Counted from the stretch's first letter, positions 8,749 to 64,000 are shown. The stretch: 64,000 nt of DNA from a bacterium (GCA_037444445.1 JBBIMK010000007.1:4592-68591); one strand, 5' to 3'. Program-made: numbers and translations. Notes: generated by a model from the sequence alone, not told the origin.

Positions 8749-8772
8749 TTTTCTCCTCGGCTCACCCTCTTT

Positions 8773-8833
8773 TCCCTTACTTCAGTTTGAAAATTATATA
8801 TCTCAAACCCCTTGCTGTCAAGCATGTGGCAGT
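8773..8833. promoter_or_regulatory. two palindromic candidate operator sites in the divergent crp/fnr - pilM intergenic region
   Basis: cAGTTTGA-N12-TCAAACc at 8773..8799 and the perfect palindrome CAGTTTacAAACTG at 8820..8833. Both carry GTTT..AAAC arms, and the second sits ~35 nt upstream of the regulator start. Confidence 0.3.
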
Positions 8834-8869
8834 TTACAAACTGAAAGCAGAGAAAGATAGAGATTTTCT

Positions 8870-9625: not shown

Positions 9626-9682
9626 TTTTCTTTTGCCCACAGGCTCCCCTAAAAAAAGTTCAACACCCGGATGGGAGAGAAA

Positions 9683-13794: not shown

Positions 13795-15747
13795 TTAAGT
13801 AGGGGAGAGAGAACGAACCACTTTCAGATAATAGCGGAGGAATAGAAAACCACTGACTGTCAGTAGCGCCCCTTGCGCCAGAAGAGTTTCCAGGGTCGGA
13901 TATAAGCCCAGCAAACCGATTGTGGGAAATCCTTTCAGGAATGTAACTCCTACCCATCCCATATCCTGCAACTCCTGTATACCCTTTCCAATGAAAGAAA
14001 AAGACAATGAATAGAGAAAAAGACTGGTCAGAGAAAAAAATAGACGGAGAGATAATTTGAGCATAAAACGATAAAAAAGAATACCCACAGAGAAAAGAAA
14101 GAGCAATCCGAGGAACAATCCAAACAAAAGGGAAGAAAAATTATGAGAATAAAAAAATAGCGACTGATAGAAGAGGATGGTTTCCAGGCCTTCGCGATAA
14201 ATGGCGAGGAAAGCCACAGAAGCCAGCGCCCACCGGCTCCCTTTTCCCAGTGCCAGCTGAACCTGATGCTGGATATACTTTTGCCAGTTCTGAGCCAGAG
14301 AGTGAGAAATTAACCAGAAGGAAACGGTAAAAAGAACGGCTGCTGCCAGAAGAAGAGTAAAACCTTCCAGCCCTTCCTGATAATTTTTCAGAGTCGCATA
14401 CACAGTTTGAGCCAGCAGGGCTGTCAGGCCGGTCAATACGAGCCCTGTCCCGGCTCCGACAAAAACCTCCCGATAAAATTTTTCCTGGCGGATTCGCTTT
14501 AAGTAAGCCAGAATGGCAACGAGAATTAAAAAGGCTTCTAAACCTTCACGAAAGAGGATCAGGAAAGATTGAAAAATTACCCACCGGGGAGACAGTTTCT
14601 CCTGCATCTGGGCGGCGAATTGCTCCAGTGCTGAAATCCACTTCTCGGCAGCAGAATGGAAAGAATTCGGCTCGTTCACTGCGGATTGAAGTTGATGAAA
14701 CAACGATTCTAATTTCCGGGTGGCAGACGGGTCAGGGCCTTTCAACAGGACTTCGTTTTGCTCAAATTCCATATAGAGGTCATGAAGCAGGGAAGAAGCC
14801 CCCTTGAAATCACCCTTGTCCACTTTCTGTTGAGCCTCCCTGAGAATTTTTATCCATTTTCCCCGGGAAGATAAGAGAATATCCTGAACAGAGGATGTGG
14901 ATGGCAAAAGAAAGGGGTGTAGAATTATCCATTGAGCCAGGACGACGCGTTGAGATTCAGGAACTTTCACTTCTGCAAGGCTCCGGGTAAGATTTTCAAT
15001 GCTTTTCGAGAGAAGGGCTTCGGGAGGGAAAGATTTCCAGCCCGGGGGCAAGAACCGTCCAGCCCATCGCCCTTTCTTCAGCATTGTTTTTTCTTCCGCC
15101 TCCATCAAAAAAAGAGAGAAGACCACAGACCACCGCTCCGTCTCTGATAGAGAGTCAGCGAACGAAGGCATAGGAGTCCCTGAGACGCCCTCCGATATGA
15201 GGGTAAATAATTGCATCGGACTCTTATTCTGAAGAAAAGAAAGGGAAAATAAATTCGGCGGATGGAAGTCGCCTATTTCCGAAGAAGGAGGCCCGTGACA
15301 GGATTTGCAATTATCCGCATAGACTCGTGCTCCCAGGGAAACACTCACTCCCGAAGGCAATCGCCATTCCAGAGGTCCCACATGCTTCTCAAGTAACCGT
15401 TGAAGGGAATTCACCGTATGCTCAACCTGTGGGATAGATGAGCGAGATTCTAATTCTTTTTGCAAGGTCTGAAATCCTTCCGAAAGAGAGGCATAAAAAG
15501 AAAGCTCAAGGGCTATCTCCCTGGCTTTTTGAAAAAATTCAAGGCTCTCCAGGTACTCCTCCTCCCGAGAATCTGGAGAGCCTTGAATGGAAAGGAAGTA
15601 TTCATCGCGAACCAACGAGAGGAGGCGTGCCGTGCGCTGAGCCAGATTCACATTGTCCCGGTTTTTCTCTCCAGCAACTTCTGAGATACCCGAAACGAGG
15701 AAAAGAGTGAGAATAGAGAAAACATAGAAAACTTGCCTTTTGCTCAC
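13795..15747 (-). CDS. cytochrome c - FTR1 fusion: periplasmic monoheme class I cytochrome c domain fused to FTR1/EfeU-type high-affinity iron permease
   Basis: Signal peptide. Single CxxCH (NCKSCHG) with a downstream Met ligand region (GTPMPSF). The C-terminal 7-TM domain carries two REGLE motifs (FREGLEAF and YREGLETI) diagnostic of FTR1 permeases. Confidence 0.8.
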   Translation of the reverse strand: MSKRQVFYVFSILTLFLVSGISEVAGEKNRDNVNLAQRTARLLSLVRDEYFLSIQGSPDSREEEYLESLEFFQKAREIALELSFYASLSEGFQTLQKELESRSSIPQVEHTVNSLQRLLEKHVGPLEWRLPSGVSVSLGARVYADNCKSCHGPPSSEIGDFHPPNLFSLSFLQNKSPMQLFTLISEGVSGTPMPSFADSLSETERWSVVFSLFLMEAEEKTMLKKGRWAGRFLPPGWKSFPPEALLSKSIENLTRSLAEVKVPESQRVVLAQWIILHPFLLPSTSSVQDILLSSRGKWIKILREAQQKVDKGDFKGASSLLHDLYMEFEQNEVLLKGPDPSATRKLESLFHQLQSAVNEPNSFHSAAEKWISALEQFAAQMQEKLSPRWVIFQSFLILFREGLEAFLILVAILAYLKRIRQEKFYREVFVGAGTGLVLTGLTALLAQTVYATLKNYQEGLEGFTLLLAAAVLFTVSFWLISHSLAQNWQKYIQHQVQLALGKGSRWALASVAFLAIYREGLETILFYQSLFFYSHNFSSLLFGLFLGLLFLFSVGILFYRFMLKLSLRLFFSLTSLFLYSLSFSFIGKGIQELQDMGWVGVTFLKGFPTIGLLGLYPTLETLLAQGALLTVSGFLFLRYYLKVVRSLSPT

Positions 15748-17870: not shown

Positions 17871-20066
17871 CTACGAGGTAACCACCGTGTAAGAGTAGGC
17901 AGTATTATCAGCAATATCTGTCACTTTGAGTGTGATGGTATGCTCACCTTCGGAAATCCCGGTGATAGAGAATATGTAGGACTCCGACTTAGAATCCGGA
18001 ATTCCATCGGCAGGGAGAATCACTTTCCAGGAATCAGAATCCAAAGAATATTCAGCCCCATCTATGCGGCTCCAGGCATCAGAGACCCGAAAGGATATAA
18101 AGATTTTTGATTTCTCTGAGCGGGCTTTCAAGTCTGTAATGACAGGCGGAGAATTATCCAGGACGAAGGCATCACTGATAGATTCCCCTGTTAAGGCAAT
18201 GGGGTCCGGATTGGATGGGGCGTCAGAAGCCACCACTTTCACAAAATAGGTTCCATCTGGAAGGGTTGTAGTATCCCAATTAAAACGGGAGGTAACAAGT
18301 TTATCCTTTAATAATTTCCAGCGACTTTCCGTATTGAGGCGATAATAAAGCGTATAAGTCATCTTATCTCCGTTCGGGTCTGAGGCTCTCCAGGTGATAA
18401 CCTGAAGACCCTTCTGGGTGGGACGAGGAGGGGGTGGACCCGGGGGAGGCATTTCCGTTTCGCCCCCAAATACCTGCTGAACTGCAGAAGTCATAAGGGC
18501 CTCCATGTCTGCTCTTCCCGGAGGCTGGGCGGCCTGCTTCGCCGCCTGAGTGGGTGATACAATCTGCACAGAGCTGACGCTCGGAGGTAAGTTTCGTTGT
18601 AAATAAGAGAAGGCGAATTTATGCACCTCCGGACTTCTGGAGCCGTCTGACGACAGAATCACTTTCCACTGGAGATAACGAGCGGAAGCACTCTGGATTT
18701 TATCGTCCTTTGCAGGCTTCCATTCACCCCAGGTGCTTTCCGGCTTGTCCGTATTCCCGGTGCGAGTATAAAATTCAGCGCGGGCTCCGGCAGGTAAAGC
18801 AACCTCTTTCTCCACGGCACCCCAGTCGGAAAGGATGCCGGCATCAAAAACCTCTGAAATATAAAACCCTTCGGACTGGCGTTTACCGGTTAGCCGATAT
18901 ACTTTCCCAAGATTGCTGGTGAGGACGAAATAAGTTCCCGAAGTATCCGGCAAAAGTTCCGTGATTTGCTCTTCGTCTAAATCCGATTCAAGAGTTTCTT
19001 TACCTTCGGTAGAAATGAAATACAGGAAGCCTTGTTTTCCCGTTCCAACAAGGAATCCGGAGGGGGAAGACGGAGCCAAAGCATACAGGTCATCCGACGA
19101 AGTTTCCCAGAGAGTTTGCCCGATACCCTCGTAAGTAATTTTTACAATGCCAGACTTTCTGGGACCTGCAGGCACAGGAGGAAGTGTGGGTGCTTCCTCC
19201 ATTTGCTCCGTTATTTCCTGAACAGTAGAAGCGAGATTAGAAAAATCGCCCTGCATGAATTGCTGGGCGAGGCTCGCTATGTCAGGCATTTGTGCGACTT
19301 TCCCTGCTGGAGCCTTCATCTTCGGAGCTGCCGAACCACCCATCACATAGAGAGCCTCCGGTGTCAACAGAATTTTCAGCACTTCCTGGTAGGGGGTGTC
19401 AAAAAGAGCGAAAGGGCGCCCATCAGCCGTAATCCGATATACCCAGCCGTTGTTCGCAGTGCCCACATAAACTTCACCCTTATTTCTAACAGCCAGAGAA
19501 CGGAGATGAGACTCATCGCTCTCAAAGACTGTTTCTGCTTGATTTTGCTTCTTCACTCTATAGAGTTTGCCTTTTTCATCTCCCGTCGCCACCCAGAGGG
19601 CCCCTTCTTCATCCAGTGCCAGAGCCCAGATATATTTTTCTGGCGGGTCGAAATAAACTTCACTTTTCTCCGCCGAAGGAATCCAGTAGACTTTCCCATC
19701 TGGCGAAGTGGCCGCAAAAATCTCGCCTTTCCTTCCCCCTATAGCAAGAGCATGGACCTCTGGCTCCTCGGCATCAAAATAGACCGAGGTGTCGCCCTGA
19801 GGGGAAATCCGAAACACTTTCCCCTCGTTGCCGGTGCCCACATAAAGATTCCCCGCAGAATCTTTGACAGCCGTCCATACATACGGGGCCTCCAGGTCAG
19901 CCAGTTTTTCCAGTGATGGGGCTAAACCCAGAATCCCTTGTGAAGAAATGGATACACCCTCCACTTTGCCTTTCTTGAAATCGGCATACGAGGTGTAGAC
20001 CTTATAATTCGGTGAGGCTGATACAAGCACTACACCAATGAGCCAGAGTCCAATGGTCTTTTTCAC
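17871..20066 (-). CDS. secreted beta-propeller repeat protein with C-terminal Ig/FN3-like domains
   Basis: Signal peptide. Repeated YVGT.../VWVAT.../VYVGT... blades (Reg_prop/PQQ-like pattern). C-terminal beta-sandwich-like region. ATGA overlap with the upstream peptidase gene. Confidence 0.6.
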   Translation of the reverse strand: MKKTIGLWLIGVVLVSASPNYKVYTSYADFKKGKVEGVSISSQGILGLAPSLEKLADLEAPYVWTAVKDSAGNLYVGTGNEGKVFRISPQGDTSVYFDAEEPEVHALAIGGRKGEIFAATSPDGKVYWIPSAEKSEVYFDPPEKYIWALALDEEGALWVATGDEKGKLYRVKKQNQAETVFESDESHLRSLAVRNKGEVYVGTANNGWVYRITADGRPFALFDTPYQEVLKILLTPEALYVMGGSAAPKMKAPAGKVAQMPDIASLAQQFMQGDFSNLASTVQEITEQMEEAPTLPPVPAGPRKSGIVKITYEGIGQTLWETSSDDLYALAPSSPSGFLVGTGKQGFLYFISTEGKETLESDLDEEQITELLPDTSGTYFVLTSNLGKVYRLTGKRQSEGFYISEVFDAGILSDWGAVEKEVALPAGARAEFYTRTGNTDKPESTWGEWKPAKDDKIQSASARYLQWKVILSSDGSRSPEVHKFAFSYLQRNLPPSVSSVQIVSPTQAAKQAAQPPGRADMEALMTSAVQQVFGGETEMPPPGPPPPRPTQKGLQVITWRASDPNGDKMTYTLYYRLNTESRWKLLKDKLVTSRFNWDTTTLPDGTYFVKVVASDAPSNPDPIALTGESISDAFVLDNSPPVITDLKARSEKSKIFISFRVSDAWSRIDGAEYSLDSDSWKVILPADGIPDSKSESYIFSITGISEGEHTITLKVTDIADNTAYSYTVVTS

Positions 20067-21934
20067 TTCATTTCCTCCTTTTCTATTTGAACTGAAAGCA
20101 TTTCTTTCCCTGTTATTTCAAAACGGAGTTTCTCGGAATTTTCTGAAACAATTTTTCTTTGATAACGGAAGGAATCTTTAGGAACTCGGGGAGATTCCAG
20201 TACACTGGAAATGGAGGGTGGAAGAGAAGGGAAGTCTTTTCCGTGGATGTAGAGCCCTCCTTCAGGCTGTTCCAGAAAAACATAAAGTCGATTGCTCATT
20301 CTCTTTTCCTTCAATAGTCGTAAAACATCTTCAAAAGAATACGGGGTAGTAGGGGAAAGGGATATATCCTCCAGAGTAGCCTCTTGACCTCCGCCGATGA
20401 AGATTTGCATCGTGCCTTCTTTGATGGATTCAGGAACTTTCACAGTAAGAGTATGACGCTCCTCATCCTTCATCCAGGGCTTTAGAATATAAAAAATCTG
20501 AAGGGATTCACCGGGTGCTACCGTTGTTTTATCGGTCCAGGCCCTCTTCAAAACGGCAGAATTTCTACCCCGAACAACTTCTAACTGAATCTCTACTTTT
20601 TCCAGATTTGGAAACACAAATCCATTGTCAAAAATGGATGCGAGGATAGAAGTCAGGTCAAATGCTGCATTGGCCAGAGCGGAATCTCCGCCAAAAAGAA
20701 ACTCAAAAAATCCTGGCATCCCCCCATAAAAATTTTCAAAGGGAAGGATGCCATAATTCTGGATATAAATCCGAGCAGACACTTGAAGACTGGTTCCGCT
20801 TCCAGATAACCGAGCAGATTCCATAGCGTCCGCTATCACTGAGAAGGTCAGAAAACTCATAAAGGGATTGATAGATTTATCCTGAGCGATACGATACGAA
20901 AAGGATTTCTTCTCTCCCCCGGGAAACTGAATATCTATCTGAAGCGGATACATATTCACCGGTGCACCCAGAATACCAAAGATACCTGTGGTTCTATCCT
21001 GTCGCAAGTTCCCTACGATTTTTCCGGTATTAGCCATTTTGGTAGAAGCGGAAAGGAGGGAGAGGGTGTGAACGATGGAAGCCTGAGCCATGGGAAGGTT
21101 GATGGGTCCCTGGTCGAAGAAGGGATGCCCGAAAGCCAGCACGGAGTTATCCTTCCGATAGGTAACCGTTCCAGTGGCATCAAAATTCAGGTCGCCGTCC
21201 ACCAGAACAGCGGAAATGGGGGAACCTGGTTCCAGGGGAGGGCCCGTATCTTCTGCCCTGCCTCCACCTGGTGTCATAACCAGCCCCGCTTCCTCAAAAA
21301 CGGGTTGTATCCGATTAAACACCGCCGGAGAAATACCCGAAACAGAGAGAAGCAGGGGGATGTTCTCCATCCCTTCTGGATAACGAGCAGATAATTTTGA
21401 CCAGCGCTGCGTAATTTCCTCCCAGAAGGCTTGCTTCTGACCAGGAATTCCAAGGGCAGACCAGAAAGCAGAAGCAGAAAACTGGGGAACCGGCTCTTCC
21501 TCATCCCGAATAGATTCTTTACCAGGAATTTCCAACATCTCTTCTATGGGGGTGACGCCAGCAATGGGTTCTTTTTGAAAACTTCCAAAGCGATAAGCCA
21601 GCGCACCCACCAGTTTGTCCTGTATATATACAGGACTCCCGCTCATTCCCGCCACGACACCCGTGAATTGTGCCTTTTCTCCGAGAAGACGAATGAGGAT
21701 CACACTCCGCTTAGAAGAAAAATTCTTTAGCACACCCACAACTTCCACAGGAAATTCTTCAATTTTATCTCCCTGAAAAACCGTTTTAGCATATCCACGC
21801 ATCCCTTCTTTTATCTCGGATAAGGCAAGTATTTGAGGTTCTGCCTTGAGAATAGAAGCGGAAAAAAGGAAAATCCCCACAACTCCACTCCAGGCCACTC
21901 GTTTTACCATCCAAAATCCCTCCTGCTCCTTCAT
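20063..21934 (-). CDS. secreted serine peptidase-like protein (GMSGSP motif; SpoIVB/S55-like, tentative)
   Basis: Signal peptide. GVVAGMSGSPVY resembles the S55/SpoIVB catalytic serine motif. The overall architecture is non-canonical, so the function is tentative. Confidence 0.45.
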   Translation of the reverse strand: MKEQEGFWMVKRVAWSGVVGIFLFSASILKAEPQILALSEIKEGMRGYAKTVFQGDKIEEFPVEVVGVLKNFSSKRSVILIRLLGEKAQFTGVVAGMSGSPVYIQDKLVGALAYRFGSFQKEPIAGVTPIEEMLEIPGKESIRDEEEPVPQFSASAFWSALGIPGQKQAFWEEITQRWSKLSARYPEGMENIPLLLSVSGISPAVFNRIQPVFEEAGLVMTPGGGRAEDTGPPLEPGSPISAVLVDGDLNFDATGTVTYRKDNSVLAFGHPFFDQGPINLPMAQASIVHTLSLLSASTKMANTGKIVGNLRQDRTTGIFGILGAPVNMYPLQIDIQFPGGEKKSFSYRIAQDKSINPFMSFLTFSVIADAMESARLSGSGTSLQVSARIYIQNYGILPFENFYGGMPGFFEFLFGGDSALANAAFDLTSILASIFDNGFVFPNLEKVEIQLEVVRGRNSAVLKRAWTDKTTVAPGESLQIFYILKPWMKDEERHTLTVKVPESIKEGTMQIFIGGGQEATLEDISLSPTTPYSFEDVLRLLKEKRMSNRLYVFLEQPEGGLYIHGKDFPSLPPSISSVLESPRVPKDSFRYQRKIVSENSEKLRFEITGKEMLSVQIEKEEMK

Positions 21935-52578: not shown

Positions 52579-53235
52579 TTAGGTGCCTGAACTGAAGATG
52601 TGAATCATCGTGGAAGGTGTATCGGCAGGGTCCGTTCTCCAGTCAGTGCCACCCGGGTCACCATCGTCAGCGGTGGAGCACGGGTCGTCCACGGTATCCA
52701 ATTGGATGACAGCGCCTGTGGTCGGTGTGCCCTGTTGGGGTGCCGACTCGCCGTCTACAGCGATGTCCGTCTCGTTGGCTTCTCTGGCAGGCACAGCACC
52801 GAAATAGACGAAACGGTCATTAGCGATACCGTCCCCATTCCGGTCGGCGTTGGAATCATCCCCGCCCCCGCTGTCAGTGTCATCCAGCATAAAGCACCCT
52901 CCATATTGGTCCACATAGCGAGGAGTGGCGTTGCGTCTCGGAGGCTTATCCATATAGGGCCCCTTCCAGTTCGTCGCGCCCAGTGGGTTGGTGAGCAACT
53001 GTTGAACGGCATTATCCGTCCCGTCTGTCGGGTCCACTGGCCAGGCGCCCACATCAGCGAAATATTCCAGAGTGCCTTTCCGGAGGTCCTCCGCCTCGGA
53101 GAGATTCCGGGACACACGCCCCTTTCGGATTTGCCCGAACACCTGGGGCAGAATGACAGCGGCCAGAATGGCGATAATCGCCACCACCGCAATTAACTCG
53201 ATGAGAGTGAAGCCCTTCTTCACATTTCTCATCAC
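52579..53235 (-). CDS. type IV pilin / pseudopilin with prepilin N-terminal methylation motif and Asp-rich C-terminal region
   Basis: KKGFTLIELIAVVAIIAILAAVILP is the class III signal peptide and alpha1 helix. The C-terminal half is acidic with DRNGDGIANDRF (DxDGDGxxD Ca-binding-like) and contains two Cys. AAAGGAGGTG RBS and a TATAAT -10 upstream. Confidence 0.8.
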   Translation of the reverse strand: MMRNVKKGFTLIELIAVVAIIAILAAVILPQVFGQIRKGRVSRNLSEAEDLRKGTLEYFADVGAWPVDPTDGTDNAVQQLLTNPLGATNWKGPYMDKPPRRNATPRYVDQYGGCFMLDDTDSGGGDDSNADRNGDGIANDRFVYFGAVPAREANETDIAVDGESAPQQGTPTTGAVIQLDTVDDPCSTADDGDPGGTDWRTDPADTPSTMIHIFSSGT

Positions 53236-54064: not shown

Positions 54065-55087
54065 TCATTTCAGGCTCAGGGAAATGACCTCTGAGGCATC
54101 CACGGGAAGGTCGCCGGAATCTGTTCGTAACAGGAGTCGTCCGTCGGGCAGGACATCGCGAGCGGTGCCGCGGACTTCCCGCGAATCGCCCAGCAGGATT
54201 CGCACCGGGTCACCTAAAAAATCCGCATAGAAACGCCACTGCTCCAGGATGTCCGAAGCCTTACCCTCTTCCATCGCTCTCACTCCGTTTTCCATCTTCT
54301 CTAAAAATACCGCCAGTAACTTCTGTCGTGAAGTCGGACGGCCGAGAATCTCCCGCAAGGTGGTTACCCGCTCCTGAAGCCCCCCGGGAAAATCTACCAG
54401 AGAAGAGTTCACATTCACACCTACGCCAATAATCACATGCTCCAGGTCGCTCTGCCTGAAGGCGGATTCCACCAGAATTCCAGCAATCTTTCTTCGGGCA
54501 AATAGCACATCATTGGGCCAGAGCATGGAGGGGTGAACACCCGTTTCTTCCTCCAGGGCCTGGGCTAATTTGACACCGGTCAAAAAGGGAAGAAGAGAGG
54601 CTGAGGTTGCCTCCAGGGAAGGGAAAAGGATGAGGGAGAGGATGATATTTTTACCGAAAGGGGAGAACCACTTTCTGCCCCAGCGCCCCATACCTTTGGA
54701 CTGGTATTCTGCAATCACAATCGTGCCATCGGGAACCCCGCGTTCAATCAACCGACGGGCTTCCCGATTCGTGGAATCAATCACCCGGTGGTAGTAGCAG
54801 GTTCGGCCATACCGTCTCGTATTCAAAAAGGGAAAATACTGAAGAGGATGGAGGATGTCTGGAACGCCGATGAGGCGGTAGCCCACTTTGGAGCGGGCTT
54901 CAATCCTGTAATTGAGAGCCTTGAAATACTGGATATCCTTCCACACGGAGGGGCGTGACAGGCCCATTTTTTCTGCAATTTCCTGCCCGGATACAAATTC
55001 CCCCTGACGGCTCAGTAGCGTATTCAATAGTTGAAGTTTTTCATCCGTGATGGCGAGTTTACCGTCTTTGCCTAACAGGGGGCTCAT
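54065..55087 (-). CDS. birA: bifunctional biotin--[acetyl-CoA-carboxylase] ligase / biotin operon repressor BirA
   Basis: N-terminal HTH, the GMGRWGRKWFSPFG biotin-binding motif and a C-terminal domain. ATGA overlap with ribH. Confidence 0.85.
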   Translation of the reverse strand: MSPLLGKDGKLAITDEKLQLLNTLLSRQGEFVSGQEIAEKMGLSRPSVWKDIQYFKALNYRIEARSKVGYRLIGVPDILHPLQYFPFLNTRRYGRTCYYHRVIDSTNREARRLIERGVPDGTIVIAEYQSKGMGRWGRKWFSPFGKNIILSLILFPSLEATSASLLPFLTGVKLAQALEEETGVHPSMLWPNDVLFARRKIAGILVESAFRQSDLEHVIIGVGVNVNSSLVDFPGGLQERVTTLREILGRPTSRQKLLAVFLEKMENGVRAMEEGKASDILEQWRFYADFLGDPVRILLGDSREVRGTARDVLPDGRLLLRTDSGDLPVDASEVISLSLK

Positions 55088-55572
55088 TTGCGACGAATGG
55101 CCCGAGAGAGGTGAACCATCTCCAGGCAGACGAGGGCGGCTTCTGCCCCCTTATTTCCCATTTTTCCCCCCGCCCGCTCCAGGGCTTGCTCCAGAGTATC
55201 CGCCGTGAGGACTCCGAAAGCAATTGGAACTTCACTCTCCAGGGTCAATCGAGCAATCCCCCGACTGACCTCCGCCGCAATCACATCATAATGAGAGGTT
55301 TCCCCCTTGAGGACAGCGCCCAGAGCAATCACTCCGTCCCCTGCTTTCCCGCTCTTCAGAAGGGTGCGAATCGTAAAAGGAATCTCAAAAGAGCCTGGCA
55401 CCCGATAAACGGCTATATGTTCCTCCGCTACCCCGTATCTGCACAGAGCATCCACCGCACCCTGAAGAAGAGACTCGGTAACCAGCCCGTTGAACCGGCT
55501 CACGACAATGCTGAAAGTAAGCCCTGTTCCGTCCATCCGATTTAGGGCAGGACCCTTATTTCCTTTTTTCAT
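55084..55572 (-). CDS. ribH: 6,7-dimethyl-8-ribityllumazine synthase
   Basis: ...FSIVVSRFNGLVTESLLQGA... is the lumazine synthase core. 162 aa. Confidence 0.9.
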   Translation of the reverse strand: MKKGNKGPALNRMDGTGLTFSIVVSRFNGLVTESLLQGAVDALCRYGVAEEHIAVYRVPGSFEIPFTIRTLLKSGKAGDGVIALGAVLKGETSHYDVIAAEVSRGIARLTLESEVPIAFGVLTADTLEQALERAGGKMGNKGAEAALVCLEMVHLSRAIRRK

Positions 55573-55585
55573 AAAAATAGTCGCC

Positions 55586-56806
55586 TCAATCCTCTTCCCA
55601 TTGGAGTTGAAACAGGTGGCCTAATTTTTCTTTTTTTGCCTTCAGATACTTCACATTTTCCTTATTGGGTAAGATTTCCAGAGGGACTCGCTCCACAATC
55701 TCCAGGCCGAAGCCTTTCAAGCCGATAATTTTTTTCGGGTTGTTCGTCATCAGGCGCATTTTCCGCACATTCAGGTCGAGGAGAATTTGGGCGCCGACGC
55801 CGTATTTTCGCAAGTCCGGAGGAAAGCCAAGGGCCTGGTTCGCCTCCACAGTGTCCAGCCCCCTCTCCTGGAGAGCGTAGGCTTTAATTTTATTATGCAA
55901 GCCAATGCCACGACCCTCCTGGCGCATATACACGAAAACTCCTTTCCCCGTTTGACCTATCTGGGAGAGAGCAATCTCTAATTGCTCCCCGCAATCACAT
56001 CGCAGGGAATGAAACACATCTCCGGTCAAGCATTCCGATTGGACGCGGACCAGCACCGGGTCTTCCGGATGAATCTCGCCCATAACCAGCGCAACATGAT
56101 GCTGGTGATTGAACTTTTCGCGATAAGCATAAATGGTGAATACGCCAAAAGGAGTGGGAAGGTGAGCCTGAGAAACCTTTTCAATCAACCTCTCGCGCTG
56201 GAGGCGGAATTCAATCAAATCTGCGATGGAAATGATTCGCAGGTGATGCTTCTGAGCAAATATCTCCAGGTCTGGGAAGCGTGCCATGGTTCCATCTTCT
56301 TTCATAATCTCGCAGATAACGCCCGCGGGATACAGCCCGGCCAGTTTAGCCAGGTCTACACTGGCTTCCGTATGGCCTGCTCGTTCTAAAACCCCACCCC
56401 TGCGGGCCTTGAGAGGGAAGATATGGCCGGGGCGCTGAAGGTCCCCCGCCTTCGTCTCCGGGTTCACTAAAACCCAAATCGTTCGCGCCCGGTCGTAGGC
56501 AGAAATGCCAGTCGTAATCCCCTGGCGTGCATCCACCGAAACGGTGAAGGCTGTGCCATTGCGGTCTTCCATCTGCATATCATTAGACATCAGGGGCAGA
56601 CCCAGTTCCTCCACTCTCTCCGGAGTCAGTGCGGCGCAAATCAGCCCCCGCGCTTCACGGGCCATAAAGTTAATGGCCTCAGGTGTAATCTTCTGGGCCG
56701 CCATCACCAGGTCGCCTTCATTCTCACGCCCCTCATCATCCACCACAATCACAAACCGCCCTTGCTGGATGTCCTCAATGGCATCCTTAATTCGGCTTAA
56801 TGGCAT
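55586..56806 (-). CDS. ribBA: bifunctional 3,4-dihydroxy-2-butanone-4-phosphate synthase / GTP cyclohydrolase II
   Basis: N-terminal DHBP synthase (RENEGDLV) and C-terminal GTP cyclohydrolase II with a Cys triad (CLTGDVFHSLRCDCG). Confidence 0.92.
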   Translation of the reverse strand: MPLSRIKDAIEDIQQGRFVIVVDDEGRENEGDLVMAAQKITPEAINFMAREARGLICAALTPERVEELGLPLMSNDMQMEDRNGTAFTVSVDARQGITTGISAYDRARTIWVLVNPETKAGDLQRPGHIFPLKARRGGVLERAGHTEASVDLAKLAGLYPAGVICEIMKEDGTMARFPDLEIFAQKHHLRIISIADLIEFRLQRERLIEKVSQAHLPTPFGVFTIYAYREKFNHQHHVALVMGEIHPEDPVLVRVQSECLTGDVFHSLRCDCGEQLEIALSQIGQTGKGVFVYMRQEGRGIGLHNKIKAYALQERGLDTVEANQALGFPPDLRKYGVGAQILLDLNVRKMRLMTNNPKKIIGLKGFGLEIVERVPLEILPNKENVKYLKAKKEKLGHLFQLQWEED

Positions 56807-56909
56807 TTTCCATTCCCTGCCATCTATTCATTATACCAGATGCAGGTGAAATTTCCACCCTGAACTGCCTTTTCCAAATCTCAAAAGTATATTATGATAT
56901 ATAGTAGAA

Positions 56910-56939
56910 TTGAATTCGCAGGATGCGAGACGATAAAAT
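56910..56939 (+). promoter_or_regulatory. candidate sigma70-type promoter (TTGAAT-N18-TAAAAT) for FNR-type flavoprotein gene
   Basis: -35 TTGAAT at 56910..56915 and -10 TAAAAT at 56934..56939. A G-rich RBS precedes the ATG at 56964. Confidence 0.3.
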
Positions 56940-56963
56940 TTTACCCGGGGGTGGGGGTGGCGG

Positions 56964-57962
56964 ATGAATAAGTCTTCTGACCTTTATGACATCACCATCG
57001 TTGGAGGGGGACCTACAGGTCTTTTCGCAGCATTTTATGCGGGTATGCGGGAACTCAAGACCAAAATCATTGAGGCCCTGCCAGAACTCGGTGGGCAACT
57101 CTCAGTCCTTTACCCCGAGAAGTACATCTACGATGTGCCAGGCTTTCCAAAAATTCTGTCAAAAGAATTGGTCAAAAACCTGATAGAGCAAGCTATGACC
57201 GCAAACCCTACCCTGTGCCTGGAAGAGAGGGCGCTGACTCTCCGGCGGCGAGAGGATGGCATCCTTGAACTGGAAACGACCAAAGGGCTTCATATCTCCA
57301 GAACCGTTCTCATCGCCGCTGGCGTGGGTGCCTTCTCGCCAAATAAACTCTCTATCCCCGATGCAGAAAAGTTTGAAGGGAGGGGAGTGTTCTACTTCGT
57401 CCGAGAAAAAGCCCTCCTGAAAGGTAAAAAAATCCTTATCGTGGGAGGGGGCGACTCCGCCGTAGATTGGGCTCTCAACCTCAAGGACGAGGCTGAAAAA
57501 GTCACCCTCGTTCACCGCAGGGATGTTTTCCGTGCTCACGAGTCCTCTGTGAAACAACTCTTCCATGCCGGTATTGACATATTCCTCTTCTGGGAAGTGA
57601 AAGAACTTCATGGAAATGAACGCCTCGAGGAAGCACTCATCTTCAACAATAAAACCAGGGAGACGAAAGTGTTACCCGTGGATGTGGTCCTGATAAATAT
57701 CGGATTTAAGGCTGACCCCGGTCCCATCCGGAACTGGCCTGTGGAGTTTGAGGGGCGTCACATTAAAATCAACGGAAGAATGGAAACCAGTCTACCTGGC
57801 GTCTATGCCGCAGGGGACATCGCCCATGACCCTGCCTCCGTGTATTTTGACCTTATCGTAATCGGCTACGCCCAGGCGGCAGTCGCAGTGAATTGCGCTG
57901 CCAATTACATCAACCCGAAAGCCACCCTTTTCCCGGGTCACTCCTCGGAGCGCTCCTCATAA
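56964..57962 (+). CDS. ferredoxin--NADP+ reductase, thioredoxin-reductase-like type (YumC-like flavoprotein)
   Basis: FAD motif YDITIVGGGPTGLFAAFYAG. NAD(P)H motif ILIVGGGDSAVDWA. C-terminal GDIA. 332 aa. Confidence 0.8.
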   Translation: MNKSSDLYDITIVGGGPTGLFAAFYAGMRELKTKIIEALPELGGQLSVLYPEKYIYDVPGFPKILSKELVKNLIEQAMTANPTLCLEERALTLRRREDGILELETTKGLHISRTVLIAAGVGAFSPNKLSIPDAEKFEGRGVFYFVREKALLKGKKILIVGGGDSAVDWALNLKDEAEKVTLVHRRDVFRAHESSVKQLFHAGIDIFLFWEVKELHGNERLEEALIFNNKTRETKVLPVDVVLINIGFKADPGPIRNWPVEFEGRHIKINGRMETSLPGVYAAGDIAHDPASVYFDLIVIGYAQAAVAVNCAANYINPKATLFPGHSSERSS

Positions 57963-57970
57963 CTTCCGTC

Positions 57971-59395
57971 TCAGGGAACCCCCAGGGCATCCAACTGCTG
58001 GTTAGCCACCAGAAGCAGGTAGCGAGCATATTTGGCGTTGTGGACCCCAAAGGAGCCGTCGTGCTCCACATAATAATAGTTATAACGGGCACGCTTTATC
58101 TGAATGGGAATCAGGTCCTGGCCTGTGGCTCCAGAAGAGGGACCACCGTATGATGAATATTCCCAGGAAAGAGCCCCTTTTCCTTGAATATTCGCCTGCA
58201 CTCCCCAGGCATCCAGGCGGTTTTTCAAGGTGGCGAGTTTGGCTTCTATGTCGCTTTTCGTATTCAGCATTCTGGCGGCGGCGTCGCTGATGCTGTGGCA
58301 GGGAGAACATCCCTCCAGCCGAATCCTGAAGGTGTGTCCTGTAATTGCCGGGTTGTCCTCACTTTCATATTCCTTCATAGAAACATGGCAGGTGGCACAC
58401 TGCCTGGGAGTGAAGCGATGTTCGGAAAGCGCCGGGGAACCCCCGTCTTCCACACCCCCCAGCCCCAGGAGAAAGTCCAATTGAACTGAGTAGTGCGCAG
58501 CGCGAGAAGTATTCATCGCCAGGCCTGCATCTGTCGGGTCGGCGCCCCGCCGGTTGTGGCACTGCCCGCATACCTGGTCTATCCGACTATACACATTGAT
58601 GTCTGTGGAATCTCCACCCTGATAGGGGTCTTGCTCCGGGTCCCAGTATTCTTTATGCCTTAACTGGGCTTCTTCACCTTCTGCGGCATTATTCCCGGTA
58701 GCCTTGTGAGGGTCGTGGCAAACCGCACAGGTTTGAGCCGTCATCTCTTCCCTGGTCTTACCCACTAAATTCGGTGAGGCAAGGGCGTTTTCCATGACCA
58801 TCACCCGGTAATCACCCGAGTGGCAGGGACCGCAGGAAACGAGTCGTGCCGGGCCATTCACAGGGTCCGCTAAATATCCAGCCACATGCTCGGTAACTTT
58901 CGTGTGAGAGCTAACTTCCCACTCATCGTAGGTGGGATGATGAGCATCCGTGTGGCATTTCCCGCAAAGACTTGCGGCGAGAATCCCGGGATAGGTGAGA
59001 ATTTTCGTCTTATCCCCACCAGAACTCACATGTTGCTCTCCAGGCCCGTGGCAGTTCTCACATTGGACACCCCCCAGCCCCGGGGTAGATGTGGCATCTT
59101 TGAAACCGGACTCAAACCCATATCCCAGAGTGTGGCATGACAGGCATTCTGAATTCGTGCCGAATCCGATTTGCTGTAGACTCGTCAGTGCCTGAGAATG
59201 CCTGGTGGTCTGCACTTCATCGTAGATAGTTTGGTGGCAGTTTTTGCAGGTGTCCGCACCCACATACCTTCCCCCGCTGGGTAGTGGCAGTGTGGGACCT
59301 GTCGTTACTCCACCCTGATTACAGGTGACCACCGTGAAAACTGCCAGAATCACCAGCATCCACATACTTCCACTCACCCTCCATCTCATACCCAA
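57971..59395 (-). CDS. nonaheme c-type cytochrome (multiheme), secreted/membrane-anchored
   Basis: N-terminal hydrophobic signal. Nine CxxCH motifs: CKNCH, CLSCH, CENCH, CGKCH, CGPCH, CAVCH, CGQCH, CATCH and CSPCH. Last gene of the cytochrome operon. Confidence 0.85.
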   Translation of the reverse strand: MGMRWRVSGSMWMLVILAVFTVVTCNQGGVTTGPTLPLPSGGRYVGADTCKNCHQTIYDEVQTTRHSQALTSLQQIGFGTNSECLSCHTLGYGFESGFKDATSTPGLGGVQCENCHGPGEQHVSSGGDKTKILTYPGILAASLCGKCHTDAHHPTYDEWEVSSHTKVTEHVAGYLADPVNGPARLVSCGPCHSGDYRVMVMENALASPNLVGKTREEMTAQTCAVCHDPHKATGNNAAEGEEAQLRHKEYWDPEQDPYQGGDSTDINVYSRIDQVCGQCHNRRGADPTDAGLAMNTSRAAHYSVQLDFLLGLGGVEDGGSPALSEHRFTPRQCATCHVSMKEYESEDNPAITGHTFRIRLEGCSPCHSISDAAARMLNTKSDIEAKLATLKNRLDAWGVQANIQGKGALSWEYSSYGGPSSGATGQDLIPIQIKRARYNYYYVEHDGSFGVHNAKYARYLLLVANQQLDALGVP

Positions 59396-59431
59396 CTATC
59401 CCTCCTTTATCATTTTGGTTTCTTTGAAGTT

Positions 59432-60649
59432 TTATTGCCCTCCTGACCAGTCCAGCCCCTGTTTGTTGGGATTCTTGTGAATATCGTAGGTCACATCATC
59501 ATCCGTTCCAGCCATTTGCTGTTTTGTCTTGCTCATATGGCATCGCTTGCAGGAATAATCCAGGGTTAAATAACCAATCCCTGCCGTGAGGACAACCCGG
59601 TCCGGTTCATCCGTTCCACCGATATCATTCGGGTCATCTTCCAGAAAGGCACGGTCGGGGTCCATAGAAATGGCAAACAGGTGAGTTTTCACATCCCCCA
59701 CGAGAGTATTGGTATCTCCCACAGCGCTCTTCGTGGCCTGTGCCATATGGCAATCATTGCAAGTCACCCCAGCCCGAGCCATAGTGCTGGAAGAGAATGT
59801 TGTGGCTACATCCTTATGGCACTCTTCGCAGGTCACGCGAATGGATTCGCTGGATTTTCTGTGAGGGTCGTGGCAGGTGATGCATTCCATCCGGGCATTC
59901 TGGTAGTGACGAGTAGCAATATATTCGTTATATTGCTCGTGATGGGCAATGAAGGGAGCCTTCGCCAGAATCGTAGTAGGGAAGGGGCTGGAGGTTTTCC
60001 TCACACCCCGATAATGGCAGTCTCCGCAAAGGTCAGAACTCTGAAACTTCGGGAGGCTTTCACGGAAATTGACATGACGAGAGCCTCCTCCACCATGGCA
60101 TCTTTCACACTGGATGCCTTCAAACACCCATGTGCCCGAGATTCCCGGTAGCTCGCCCTGGTGGCCATCAGAAGAGAACCCCGTCGTATGGCAGGAGCCA
60201 CAATTATACTTCTTCGTCCCACAGGGATTGCTTGTATACTTCACGAAACTGCCGGTTGCAAAGTTATATTGTGCTCCATCTCCAGTGAGAATATACCCGT
60301 TCTTGTCCACATACCGCGCCTTCCAGCGATACCCTCCAATCACATAACTGATGTCGTTCCAGTTCGTAGGAGAGCAGACACTTTGTGCTGGAAAAGGAAT
60401 TTCAGGCAAGCCATAAAAGGGTGCTTCAATCGCTAAGGATGTAGTGCGTAATTTCCAGGGATGTCCGCTTCTGAGAAAACTATCGTAAATGTCCAGGTGA
60501 CATCTGCCACAGACTGGAGAGCCGACAAACTCCGCAGGACCCAGAGCCTCTTCGGATATCACCTTCTGTAAACTCTTCCCGCAGGAAGCCAGCCCTGCAA
60601 GGAAGAAAACCACTACAAGGAAATGCCTGATTCCTTCTTTCACTTTCAT
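59432..60649 (-). CDS. octaheme c-type cytochrome lipoprotein (candidate outer-surface cytochrome)
   Basis: Lipobox LASC signal peptide. Eight CxxCH motifs: CGRCH, CGSCH, CERCH, CGDCH, CITCH, CEECH, CNDCH and CKRCH. Starts 12 nt after the barrel gene. Confidence 0.85.
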   Translation of the reverse strand: MKVKEGIRHFLVVVFFLAGLASCGKSLQKVISEEALGPAEFVGSPVCGRCHLDIYDSFLRSGHPWKLRTTSLAIEAPFYGLPEIPFPAQSVCSPTNWNDISYVIGGYRWKARYVDKNGYILTGDGAQYNFATGSFVKYTSNPCGTKKYNCGSCHTTGFSSDGHQGELPGISGTWVFEGIQCERCHGGGGSRHVNFRESLPKFQSSDLCGDCHYRGVRKTSSPFPTTILAKAPFIAHHEQYNEYIATRHYQNARMECITCHDPHRKSSESIRVTCEECHKDVATTFSSSTMARAGVTCNDCHMAQATKSAVGDTNTLVGDVKTHLFAISMDPDRAFLEDDPNDIGGTDEPDRVVLTAGIGYLTLDYSCKRCHMSKTKQQMAGTDDDVTYDIHKNPNKQGLDWSGGQ

Positions 60650-60661
60650 CCTCTATCCCTC

Positions 60662-62281
60662 CTAAAAATTTTTTCTGATTTGAAATTCCAAAAACCGGGC
60701 ATCCCCAAAGGTAGCATCCAGTTTATCCTCATAAAAATTGTAGATAGCGGAAAGATTTACAGTGAAATCCGGTAAGAATTCCCGGGAAACAGAAACATCC
60801 CAGTTATCCTCCCGAATCTTATTGCTCTCAAAGAAGTTGCCCACCTTCGTCCTGCCAAAAAGATAAGAAATAGAGGCGTGGGTCTTATCATCCAACCCCC
60901 AATCTACACCCAAGAGTGTGGATTCCTGATTCTGCACAATGTCGTAAGGGGCAGGAAACTCTCCTGCCGGCCTCAATTCCTTCAAGAATCCCTCCACATC
61001 CCACTGGGAGAAGAGATAGGTAGCAGTAAGGACAAGGTTCTCCCGGACCGCACAGGAGGCAGTGAAATTGTGAAGCGTCCATTCCCGCCCCTGAACCCCA
61101 TAAGGCGAAACGAGGTCATAATTCCCGATTTCGTCCACGAAGAAATAAGTGAAGGAAAGAGAACCCGTTGGTGCATAAGAGAAGGAAATATCCCCACGGG
61201 ATTTTTTGAGTGGCAATTCTTCCGTGTTCATCAGGTGAGTGTTCAGAATTTGCAAGGCATCCCGGAGGGTTCGGCGGTAAGAGGTTTTCAGGGAAAATTT
61301 TTTGAACTTTGCCCGGTAGGTCACCCCGTATTCTCTGGTTCTTTGCTGTTGGATTTCCGTTCCTCCCAAATCCGTCGTATCCCAGAAAGCATTCGCCTGA
61401 AGAGTATGATAGGAATAGGAAGAAGAATCCATTTTCCAGGTATAATCTGCGGAAAGGTCCAGGCGTTCGCCATTTAAGGTCAACCCTGTGGGAGAATCAG
61501 ATTTATGTCGGCGGGTAGAGTAGGTGGAAAGTAACGAGAAATCTTTCCCGGGATTGAAAGAGACGCTGGAGGACCAATCTGTGATGGAAACATCACCGGG
61601 ATTGGAGACATCATCCAGACTCTCCAGACCACGGGTGAGAAGGCTGGAGGAAAAATAATAGGAACCCTTCCAGCGGGACTGAGCAGTCATAGAAAAAGAG
61701 GAAAGGTCATACCCCAGAGAGGGGTGGAAGAAATGGATTCTGGAGGCATCGGCAAGGAAGGCAAGAGAACCGAGGATGGCTTGTCCGGAAATGCCCCGAA
61801 TCCGGTTCTTCTGCCCCACCTCTTCCCGGAAGGTATTCCAACCCATTTTATCCTCCTCGGATAAATACACAGTCAGATGAGCAGGATTCAGAGGAAGTAT
61901 CGTCCAGTTCCAGGCGTGGATATTTCGCTGGGTGCTCTCGGCGAAAGAAAAATAGTGGGGATATTTCTCATAGGAACCTTTGGAAATCAAAGAATCCTTG
62001 TAATTCCAGTCCAGACCTGCGAAAACATCCTGTCCCCCCAAGCCACTCCCCGAGAAACGGAAGAAAAAGGGTGAAGGTTCACCCTGAAGGCTCAATTTGA
62101 AAAGATAAAAACTACTGGGGGGAAAATACTGATATTCATTCCAGCGAGCCATCCGATTCTGCCGCTCCCGCACCGAGCGGACCCCGGGAGCAATCTCCTC
62201 CACAAAGAGAACAGCACCCATAGAGACCAAACTCACGCTGAGAAGGAAACCGAAAACACAGAGGGAAAGTCGTCTCTTCAT
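60662..62281 (-). CDS. outer-membrane beta-barrel protein, MtrB/PioB/OmbB-like porin partner of multiheme cytochromes (inferred)
   Basis: Signal peptide. 539 aa, S/T/Y/F-rich with alternating amphipathic strands. Ends in the C-terminal ...QIRKNF typical of OMPs and has no heme motifs. It lies between the decaheme and lipoprotein cytochrome genes with 10-12 nt gaps. Confidence 0.65.
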   Translation of the reverse strand: MKRRLSLCVFGFLLSVSLVSMGAVLFVEEIAPGVRSVRERQNRMARWNEYQYFPPSSFYLFKLSLQGEPSPFFFRFSGSGLGGQDVFAGLDWNYKDSLISKGSYEKYPHYFSFAESTQRNIHAWNWTILPLNPAHLTVYLSEEDKMGWNTFREEVGQKNRIRGISGQAILGSLAFLADASRIHFFHPSLGYDLSSFSMTAQSRWKGSYYFSSSLLTRGLESLDDVSNPGDVSITDWSSSVSFNPGKDFSLLSTYSTRRHKSDSPTGLTLNGERLDLSADYTWKMDSSSYSYHTLQANAFWDTTDLGGTEIQQQRTREYGVTYRAKFKKFSLKTSYRRTLRDALQILNTHLMNTEELPLKKSRGDISFSYAPTGSLSFTYFFVDEIGNYDLVSPYGVQGREWTLHNFTASCAVRENLVLTATYLFSQWDVEGFLKELRPAGEFPAPYDIVQNQESTLLGVDWGLDDKTHASISYLFGRTKVGNFFESNKIREDNWDVSVSREFLPDFTVNLSAIYNFYEDKLDATFGDARFLEFQIRKNF

Positions 62282-62291
62282 TCTTCACCCC

Positions 62292-63167
62292 CTAATTCAG
62301 AAACCGCTTATCTCTGTTGGAACCATGAATGCTCTTGTGGCATCGGGTGCAACGCATGAGTTCTGTGCGGGAGTTTTTATGAAATAGAAAAGCATCTGCA
62401 TGGCACTGCAGGCAGAGAGCAGGTTGACGAAGCGCCAGCAAATCCTGATTGGGCGAACCATGCGAGAGATGGCAGGCGGAACAGGATTCCAGAACCGGCT
62501 TGTGCTCATAAACGAAAGGACCCATTTTTTCCTGATGACATTTCACGCAGGGTGTCGTTCGGGAAGGCTGACGCTGGAGCATCTTCAGGCTCTCGTGAGG
62601 ATTATGACAGTCGGAGCAGGATACCTTTTTCTCACGAATCGGATGCCGGGATGGCATCTGAATTTGCGCCTTTAACGATGGATGGCAGGAAAGGCAGAGC
62701 GGGGTTTCCTCCTCCTTGAGAAGCCCTTTCTTTCCACGATGGGGGTCGTGACAGGATGTGCAGGAGGTCCCCCGGCGAGAATGCTGGGTTAATTTCCAGT
62801 CCTTCCGTTCATGGCAGGAAGTGCAAGCCACAGCAATCTCATCGGGTGAAGTGGTCCGAAAATTCCTAATCTCCGTTCCATCCGCTTTCTCTATGTGAAG
62901 AGAGCCAGGACCGTGGCACGCCTCACATCCGCTTTTCCTGGAGGGTTCCTCTTTTTCAAATAAAATCCGGTGCGCCGTGGCTTTGAACCCCACTTCTTTC
63001 CCCTCGTGGCAAGTGATGCACTGGCTGAACCCCACATACTCCTTTTTAGCAGGTTCTTCCGCAAGAACAGGGAATGACCACCAGAGGAAAAAAACAGCGG
63101 TCATCCACAGGAAGGATGTCCGCTTCACGCCCCCTGTTGCGGTGTCCCTTTTTTCACTCATCTTCAT
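62292..63167 (-). CDS. periplasmic decaheme c-type cytochrome, MtrA/PioA/MtoA-like
   Basis: Signal peptide. Ten CxxCH motifs in 291 aa: CITCH, CEACH, 2x CTSCH, CLSCH, CSDCH, CVKCH, CSACH, CLQCH and CTRCH. This matches MtrA-family heme density and size. First gene of the operon. Confidence 0.85.
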   Translation of the reverse strand: MKMSEKRDTATGGVKRTSFLWMTAVFFLWWSFPVLAEEPAKKEYVGFSQCITCHEGKEVGFKATAHRILFEKEEPSRKSGCEACHGPGSLHIEKADGTEIRNFRTTSPDEIAVACTSCHERKDWKLTQHSRRGTSCTSCHDPHRGKKGLLKEEETPLCLSCHPSLKAQIQMPSRHPIREKKVSCSDCHNPHESLKMLQRQPSRTTPCVKCHQEKMGPFVYEHKPVLESCSACHLSHGSPNQDLLALRQPALCLQCHADAFLFHKNSRTELMRCTRCHKSIHGSNRDKRFLN

Positions 63168-63325
63168 CCCTCCAGCGCCCTTCCATCATCCATTCTGATA
63201 CTCTGAAAGCACTGAGACAATGACTTCTATCAGAAATTTTCCTGACTTTCTGCAAAGGGGAAATGAATATGGATGAACCCTGTATGAAAAAAGAATCACT
63301 TTACATATTGTATCGGTTTCTAAGG

Positions 63326-64000
63326 CTACTTATAGGCATAATAAAAGGTCAGCCTGTAGAAGAGGTCGTTCTTCGGGGTGGGTCCGGAAACGGGCTTATC
63401 ATACCTCACCATTTCGAGGTTTGGAATCAGATGCACATCCGGAGCGAGTGCGTAATCCAGCCCGAGAAGGTAGAAAGCAGGTTGGGCGTCCGGTGAAACG
63501 GAGAGATAGGCGATGTTGTTAGCCCCTGGCACAGGGTCGCTCACCCTATCCATACGAAAGAATGGCTTCACCTTCTCTGAAGTTTGATAATCCGCATAAA
63601 AGGAAAGCACGGAGAGTTCCAGGTCCCTGTCAGGAGGGGGTCGTTTTCGGGTCTGCACGGCATAAAGAAGCCCGCCACGAAATGCCTTCTTTTTGTAAAC
63701 CAAAAATCCCTGGAGAGTGCGCCAGTCCTGATTCTGCGGCTTATTCCACAGGTCCGCATATCCTTCCACATAGAGTTCCGGAGTGAGCCAGCGGGAAAGA
63801 GAAGTATACACGGTTTTCCCTTTATCAGTTTCTGCCTTCGTTCCGCTTCCATTGCCCAGCATAACCCAGTAAGCGGTTCTCTTTCTTCCATCCAGATAGC
63901 CCCGGATGGAAACACCGGTATCTCTGGATTCTCCCATTTTGTAAAGGTCCAATGGAGTTTTCTCCACGGGGCGATATCCTAAAATCCCCTCTACACTTTC
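63326..64000 (-). CDS. beta-barrel-like outer membrane protein, 5'-truncated at window edge
   Basis: The frame is open to the window end (…ESVEGILGYRPVEKTPLDLYKMGES…). The sequence has alternating aromatic/hydrophobic strands (LFYRLTFYYAYK C-terminus) and the visible part has no CxxCH. Confidence 0.5.
   Translation of the reverse strand, partial: ESVEGILGYRPVEKTPLDLYKMGESRDTGVSIRGYLDGRKRTAYWVMLGNGSGTKAETDKGKTVYTSLSRWLTPELYVEGYADLWNKPQNQDWRTLQGFLVYKKKAFRGGLLYAVQTRKRPPPDRDLELSVLSFYADYQTSEKVKPFFRMDRVSDPVPGANNIAYLSVSPDAQPAFYLLGLDYALAPDVHLIPNLEMVRYDKPVSGPTPKNDLFYRLTFYYAYK

Follow-up and report, generated by a model that had tools for sequence, protein, structure and literature searches.

Introduction

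Conduits of the MtrAB type are the best-understood route for electrons across the bacterial outer membrane, and they serve as the chassis of most engineered bioelectronic strains. In the MtrCAB complex of Shewanella baltica (PDB 6r2q), MtrB is a 26-strand antiparallel barrel that encloses MtrA like a sheath (PMC7198977), and homologues of MtrA/DmsE are paired with MtrB/PioB-like barrels in many lineages (PMC11492766, PMC12133095, PMC10654088). Here, we analyze a four-gene, minus-strand operon, A-B-C-D, at one end of a 64,000-nucleotide (nt) stretch of bacterial DNA (GCA_037444445.1 JBBIMK010000007.1:4592-68591), which we refer to as the window. A first-pass annotation, made from the sequence alone, had read this operon as an MtrAB/PioAB/Pcc-like porin-cytochrome conduit. 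The Mtr-type part of that assignment stands, the Geobacter Pcc-type part does not for lack of homology, and the operon probably encodes a miniaturised MtrAB-type trans-outer-membrane electron conduit with non-MtrC outer cytochromes, through which electrons would most likely flow outward. It is a rare variant of the known MtrAB system, not a new kind of system.

The locus resembles the Shewanella MtrCAB system in its MtrA-family decaheme cytochrome, in a 26-strand barrel whose nearest structure is MtrB, in the adjacency of these genes, and in an operon that also encodes at least one lipoprotein multiheme cytochrome. It differs from MtrCAB in that the barrel has 539 amino acids (aa), as compared with 649 residues in the solved MtrB chain, an observation that bears out the earlier remark that the porin is shorter than MtrB; the two barrels share 11-12% identity, and the present one has essentially no long surface loops. 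Further differences are a decaheme about 25-35 residues shorter than canonical, outer cytochromes with 8 and 9 hemes that fall in the OcwA/OmhA clade instead of the MtrC/OmcA family, and a gene order of A-B-C-D where Shewanella has mtrC-A-B. The MtoAB and PioAB systems likewise combine the same decaheme and 26-strand-barrel families in adjacent genes (PMC10654088), but in place of large outer lipoprotein cytochromes their clusters have MtoD/CymA or PioC.

The characterized proteins most relevant to C and D are OcwA (6I5B), a nonaheme cell-surface terminal reductase of Thermincola potens, and OmhA (6QVM), an undecaheme S-layer cytochrome of Carboxydothermus ferrireducens; together with MccA and cytochrome c554 they form one clade, designated clade 3 (PMC9250108). 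Both have been described as cell-surface terminal reductases for Fe(III) minerals (PMC9250108, PMC7829351), and both contain two five-coordinate hemes with a conserved distal His (PMC9250108). C and D share their clade and their N-terminal c554-like multiheme module, but have 8 and 9 hemes where OcwA and OmhA have 9 and 11.

In layout, the operon is also reminiscent of the Geobacter ExtABCD and OmaB-OmbB-OmcB systems, in which a periplasmic multiheme cytochrome and a barrel are followed by one or two lipoprotein multiheme cytochromes; the ExtABCD gene order is the same as A-B-C-D. Membership in the Pcc/Ext group was nevertheless rejected, as homology is absent and the sole Ext-type match, to ExtKL, reached 16.9 bits against a cut-off of 250. 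In contrast to the Geobacter systems, A belongs to the MtrA family and not to ExtA/OmaB, and B is related to MtrB and not to the Pcc-type barrels.

Gene content and layout of the operon

According to the ORF (open reading frame) list of the window, gene A (62292-63167) encodes 291 aa, gene B (60662-62281) 539 aa, gene C (59432-60649) 405 aa, and gene D (57971-59395) 474 aa, the last with either a TTG start or an ATG at codon 3. The intergenic gaps A-B, B-C and C-D measure 10, 12 and 36 nt, and motif counting yielded 10, 0, 8 and 9 CxxCH motifs for A to D. These values reproduce exactly the gene sizes, strand, heme counts and 10-36 nt gaps of the first-pass annotation, and the 539-aa protein was again found to lack heme sites and to end in ...RKNF. 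The 27 CxxCH motifs across the ~1,170 residues of the three cytochromes A, C and D are far above chance, given that a rough estimate from typical Cys and His frequencies predicts well below one in a sequence of that length.

A GGAGG-type ribosome-binding site lies 5-11 nt upstream of each of the four genes, with better spacing for gene A if its second ATG is used. The GC content of the cluster (0.49-0.53) is the same as that of the rest of the window and therefore gives no sign of recent acquisition. Plus-strand ORFs overlapping A-D look spurious and had no match in any search made, an Rfam scan of positions 55000-64000 returned no family, and besides A, C and D the 64-kb window contains no other multiheme cytochromes.

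The decaheme cytochrome

Sequence comparison places gene A in the MtrA/DmsE family of decaheme cytochromes, as a periplasmic c-type cytochrome. It matches the DmsE/MtrA model TIGR03508 at 219.2 bits, above the curated cut-off of 192.2 and over profile positions 1-257 of 258, and its sole strong PDB sequence match is MtrA (6r2q chain A; E 6.5e-39, residues 46-286), in agreement with the MtrA/PioA/MtoA-type assignment originally proposed for the 291-aa protein. A match to the GSU2203 decaheme family (NF041028) scored 232.2 bits, under the cut-off of 325. Matches to NrfB, NapC and NrfH were only marginal beside the MtrA family; a grouping with NrfB/NapC, which had been named as the competing assignment, was thus not found, and an NrfB/NapC-type periplasmic partner was rejected for gene A.

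The protein starts with a signal peptide, ...PVLA/EEP as judged by eye, and contains 20 His in total alongside its ten CxxCH motifs. In an alignment of five decahemes that stand next to compact barrels of the gene B type (termed compact-module decahemes; see below), all ten motifs and nine further His are invariant, which fits bis-His ligation as in MtrA. These five sequences are monophyletic in a tree of 83 decahemes, calculated by neighbour-joining without bootstrap support and with a biased sample as the canonical set. They are also shorter: counted from the first heme motif, they have 246-259 residues, as compared with a canonical median of 281.

The compact barrel

Gene B is a remote, compact member of the MtrB/PioB superfamily that lies outside current family models. 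The protein has a signal peptide, and its C-terminal ...RKNF ends in an aromatic residue, like the beta-signals of outer-membrane proteins. At E <= 1, searches against Pfam and NCBIfam returned nothing except one spurious NCBIfam match (E 0.27), the MtrB/PioB model PF11854 gave no direct match, and neither the single sequence nor the family profile matched any PDB sequence. Relatives are correspondingly hard to detect. A word-indexed search of 5.8 billion proteins, using either gene B or the B-family alignment, recovered a single protein (P0001, 96% identical), and a genome-contig scan with gene B as the query found no relative. Exhaustive phmmer against 1.84 billion cluster representatives gave 20 matches, about 17 of which are full-length (528-566 aa) at 19-24% identity.

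AlphaFold2 modelling from the single sequence was unusable (pLDDT 32), and the final model was calculated with an 18-sequence family alignment. This model (pLDDT 87.1, pTM 0.76) is all-beta with 26 predicted strands, its inter-strand connections are all <=16 residues long, and it has neither a plug domain nor a TonB box region. In a Foldseek comparison with the PDB, MtrB (6r2q_B) was the top match over nearly the full length (E 4.3e-18, TMq 0.82), and the next matches, PirA, Cir, LptD and BtuB, reached TMq values of <= 0.47. We therefore rejected gene B as a TonB-dependent receptor fragment, for which the structural match is much weaker and the plug domain is missing. The first-pass annotation had asked whether the 539-aa protein might turn out to be a non-barrel or an unrelated outer-membrane protein, and the fold comparison points to MtrB instead.

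Three profile comparisons indicate that this similarity reflects homology of the B family to MtrB and not convergence. First, the B-family hidden Markov model (HMM) matches, with E 4.2e-11, the decaheme-adjacent barrel of locus L150, which itself scores 339.6 bits against PF11854. Second, one B-family member (P0137) clears the PF11854 cut-off directly, with 28.1 bits versus 23. Third, when aligned by hhalign with 30 canonical decaheme-adjacent barrels, the B family gave a probability of 99.3% (E 2.9e-20) over 482 columns. The family is set apart by size, with 528-566 aa versus 634-892 aa for complete canonical decaheme-adjacent barrels in the metagenome loci surveyed.

The multiheme cytochromes C and D

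Profile comparisons assign C and D to the c554/OcwA/OmhA/MccA clade, with gene D a distant paralogue of gene C in the same clade. Gene C encodes an octaheme lipoprotein (lipobox LAGLAS/C) and, as a single sequence, matches OcwA (6i5b) with E 6.9e-8; a 26-sequence profile of its family strengthens this match to 6e-28 and also recovers OmhA (6qvm, 3.7e-19) and MccA (4rkm, 9.7e-16). The likeness of gene C to OcwA is strong over the ~180 N-terminal residues only, and the C-terminal half aligns poorly. Gene D, a nonaheme cytochrome, matches OmhA (6qvm, 1.4e-12), OcwA (6i5b, 1.9e-11) and cytochrome c554 (3e-6). It carries a signal peptide, and the lipobox around its conserved Cys, VVT/C-NQGG, is non-canonical. 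The MtrC/OmcA model TIGR03507 had no match to either protein at E <= 1, and with 8 and 9 hemes neither has ten. The 10+8+9 heme complement had been called unusual as a whole; this holds for the outer cytochromes, whereas the ten hemes of A are canonical. Gene D also matches PF22113 (48.3 bits), but so does gene A (42.7 bits), and a match common to both proteins reflects generic heme packing.

The C family is a very large and, it seems, uncharacterised group of ~350-aa multiheme cytochromes. Gene C has 1,119 homologue clusters in many phyla, mostly of proteins of about that length, with labels that include Chloroflexi, the Firmicute Calderihabitans, Nitrospirae/Nitrospirota, Deltaproteobacteria/Thermodesulfobacteriota, and one Hydrothermarchaeota archaeon. 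Collagen-like repeats (PF01391) are joined to many of the homologues, among them several labelled Chloroflexi/Anaerolineae. Two other bacterial metagenome-assembled genomes (MAGs) have the C-family gene on its own, without a porin, and in a Nitrospirae MAG it adjoins a type II secretion operon.

Conservation of the module

Distant metagenomic relatives repeat the order decaheme, compact barrel, lipoprotein cytochrome, and their decahemes form a clade of their own. In L001-L004 and L006, the genes for the decaheme and the compact barrel are adjacent; in L002, L003, L004 and L006, the decaheme lies directly 5' of the barrel and the next gene follows within ~15 nt. More generally, all compact-barrel relatives with enough flanking sequence have a decaheme 10-50 nt upstream. 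The 5' gene encodes a 10-heme cytochrome in L002, L004 and L006, and a protein with nine CxxCH and one CxxxCH motif in L003. On the 3' side, L003 encodes a lipoprotein cytochrome that is 41% identical to C and repeats the C-like module, L004 encodes a lipoprotein cytochrome 26% identical to D, and in L002 the contig breaks off inside this gene.

All four genes A-B-C-D have counterparts in L006, at 50, 23, 35 and 59% identity, with D as the best conserved of the four proteins. The module of this locus is preceded by a Crp-family regulator and followed by genes for a 5-heme cytochrome, a Rieske protein, a cytochrome b and a second 5-heme cytochrome (7448-11065), such that the whole path from quinol to the cell surface could be encoded at this one locus. 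We found no equivalent of these Rieske/cytochrome b/5-heme genes in the window.

Sister contig L001 is the closest relative, with A, B and C 95-98% identical to their counterparts in the window. Its gene D (L001 3790-4600) is frameshifted near codon 45 and has lost 615 bp, in frame, between two 18-nt direct repeats that encode GLGGV (58452-58469 and 59067-59084 in window coordinates); five of the nine heme motifs are missing as a result. Either gene D is decaying or dispensable in that population, or the lesions are an assembly artefact.

As a canonical comparison set, a decaheme profile was used to retrieve 80 JGI metagenome loci. The decahemes of this set share 32-42% identity with gene A, and none of the 80 loci has a B-family barrel or a C- or D-like neighbour.

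Proposed mechanism and alternative explanations

By analogy with MtrCAB, we propose that A is exported to the periplasm, takes up ten bis-His hemes and threads through B, receiving its electrons from a presumed source in the inner membrane. B, as a 26-strand barrel nearly devoid of surface loops, would insulate the heme chain from lipid as MtrB does for MtrA. From the last heme of A, electrons would then move to C and reach D either through C or in parallel with it. In this arrangement, C and D would be lipid-anchored outer cytochromes, the extracellular partners of A and B, and would stand in for MtrC/OmcA where the cell meets minerals, electrodes, shuttles or partner cells; in total, 27 hemes would make up the chain. 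Outward flow would support respiration on extracellular acceptors, e.g., Fe(III) or Mn(IV) oxides.

Analogy with related systems weakly favours this outward direction, for three reasons. OcwA and OmhA, to which C and D are related, act as terminal Fe(III) reductases; the iron-oxidising MtoAB/PioAB clusters lack such outer partners; and L006 ties the module to a quinol-oxidising type of complex (Rieske/cytochrome b with pentaheme subunits), with a Crp-family regulator close by. To our knowledge, iron oxidisers with MtoAB/PioAB usually have no dedicated outer multiheme cytochromes.

Several observations weigh against the proposed outward conduit. By default, a diderm lipoprotein ends up facing the periplasm, and the operon could be linked to no machinery for export to the surface, type II secretion included. 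The lipobox of gene D is non-canonical, and the gene looks frameshifted and internally deleted in the 96%-identical sister contig, so that it may be dispensable. The gene B model rests on an 18-sequence alignment, and analogy is our ground for placing A inside B and for docking C and D. The extracellular loops of MtrB reach ~45 A from the surface (PMC7198977); as gene B lacks such long loops, its outer cytochromes probably dock in another way than those of MtrCAB. Finally, the 64-kb window contains no inner-membrane quinol dehydrogenase, and the direction of flow is not readable from sequence.

The alternative that fares best uses the same hardware in the reverse direction, with electrons taken up from Fe(II), minerals, cathodes or a syntrophic partner and with C and D as the extracellular oxidising surface. 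Mtr-type conduits are reversible, gene A shares its family with MtoA and PioA, and a cytochrome c-FTR1 iron permease is encoded in the window. Even the Rieske/cytochrome b complex adjoining the L006 module is compatible with uptake, since complexes of this type also serve the reverse electron flow of iron oxidisers. Yet the characterized MtoAB and PioAB systems carry small soluble partners (MtoD, PioC, CymA) and not two large outer lipoprotein cytochromes (PMC10654088), the solved relatives of C and D are terminal reductases, and no HiPIP, cbb3 oxidase or carbon-fixation genes lie nearby. On balance, we regard reverse flow as unlikely, at roughly a one-in-several chance.

A second alternative concerns the function and location of C and D, either or both of which could be catalytic (acting on soluble compounds such as nitrite, hydroxylamine, sulfite or tetrathionate) or could be attached to the outer membrane's inner leaflet and pass electrons on to A; under the latter reading, the conduit would consist of A and B only, as in PioAB. 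The default periplasmic orientation of diderm lipoproteins speaks for this possibility, as does the occurrence of C-family genes elsewhere as stand-alone genes without a porin. Furthermore, the OcwA/OmhA/MccA/c554 clade includes enzymes, OcwA reduces nitrite in vitro (PMC9250108), and the C-family profile matches MccA (see above). However, C and D contain enough His for all-bis-His ligation (18 for 8 hemes in C and 22 for 9 in D), and the catalytic motifs CxxCK and Cx15CH are absent from both. The conserved order of decaheme, barrel and lipoprotein also fits the logic of mtrAB with an outer cytochrome and of ExtABCD, and C relatives occur in monoderm bacteria and archaea, where they are necessarily extracellular. 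A catalytic or periplasmic role for C and D therefore seems to us more doubtful still than reverse flow.

That gene B is an ordinary substrate porin or transporter merely located beside cytochrome genes, with no porin-cytochrome complex formed, is highly improbable, because the points in its favour (no direct Pfam or NCBIfam match, matches of some B-family members to the generic Porin_4 model, and the appearance of TonB-dependent receptors and LptD in fold searches) are offset by MtrB as the top structural match by a wide margin and at nearly full length, by the hhalign result for canonical decaheme-adjacent barrels, by the decaheme closely upstream in every relative with enough flank, and by a model without plug domain or TonB box region.

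Significance

We also considered whether the A-B-lipoprotein-cytochrome module represents a distinct, undescribed lineage of electron wires, defined by a loop-less 26-strand sheath, a shortened MtrA, and OcwA/OmhA-clade cytochromes in place of MtrC. The first-pass annotation had suggested a distinct porin-cytochrome variant, and at that level the shorter porin and the unusual outer cytochromes agree with it; for a separate lineage, we consider the case possible but somewhat short of even. In the literature searched, neither an MtrB-lineage barrel of ~540 aa nor an MtrAB operon paired with cytochromes of the OcwA/OmhA clade is described, although absence there is no proof. If such a lineage exists, the extracellular end of the Mtr wire would be interchangeable, and surface reductases of a type so far known mainly from Gram-positive metal reducers would have been joined to the diderm porin-cytochrome solution in one operon. 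Its host would be an uncultured lineage without a close relative in the 185,579 species representatives.

A barrel ~110-350 residues smaller than the solved MtrB chain and the complete canonical barrels, together with a shorter decaheme, would offer a smaller working scaffold and show which parts of MtrB are dispensable. The pairing with OcwA/OmhA-clade cytochromes instead of MtrC suggests a swappable outer module, which bears on the evolution and spread of extracellular respiration between monoderms and diderms. Moreover, as the Pfam and NCBIfam models do not recover the B family, annotation-based surveys built on barrel HMMs of this kind will undercount these organisms.

Genomic surroundings and host

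The 158-nt intergenic region 5' of gene A (63168-63325, minus strand) is the presumed promoter/regulatory region of the operon. No sigma-70-like site was found in it, and promoter and terminator scans were not usefully above the shuffled expectation. The region contains a TGA-N6-TCA palindrome, TGATAGAAGTCA, at 63221-63232, ~55 nt upstream of gene A, that is similar to the core of a Crp/FNR half-site; with 26 occurrences of this core in the window and ~21 expected by chance, it is no evidence by itself.

Further upstream, at 158 nt from gene A, ORF E (63326-64000) is open to the window edge and encodes at least 224 aa. The first-pass annotation had described a truncated, beta-barrel-like gene at this position, and we confirm the open ORF but not the barrel label. 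ORF E is rich in aromatic residues (13.8%) and ends in ...TFYYAYK, had no match in Pfam, NCBIfam, the PDB or the B-family profile, and has no counterpart in the related loci. A crude beta-strand dyad-moment test is uninformative for ORF E, as it missed even gene B, its positive control.

On the other side, gene D is followed by a convergent pyridine-nucleotide-disulphide oxidoreductase gene and then by ribBA, ribH, birA, a response regulator gene and a pilin-like gene. No nitrite or sulfite reductase, a neighbour that had been named as arguing for a different function, was found downstream in the window or in the related loci, a search that did not extend beyond the upstream window edge. The first-pass annotation had also read co-occurring type IV pilus and FTR1 genes as support for an iron-based lifestyle. 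These genes are present, including those for a secretin (4526-5920), a pilin-like N_methyl protein (52579-53235), and a 650-aa cytochrome c-FTR1 fusion (13795-15747) of a monoheme Cytochrome_CBB3 domain with an FTR1 iron permease, but they are no specific evidence for iron respiration and add little. The fusion is probably an iron-uptake protein with no evident link to the conduit.

The host RibBA (55586-56806) has its best matches, at 60-67% identity among 185,579 species-representative genomes, scattered over Aquificota, Desulfobacterota, Nitrospirota, Chloroflexota and Actinomycetota, and none of the RibBA-matching loci has the cytochrome cluster. Such a pattern of sequence matches suggests a host from a poorly sampled lineage. 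The secretin, MlaD, Lgt and outer-membrane barrels give the organism a diderm look, in which a 623-aa protein with a SpoIVB-type peptidase S55 domain (20063-21934) is unusual.

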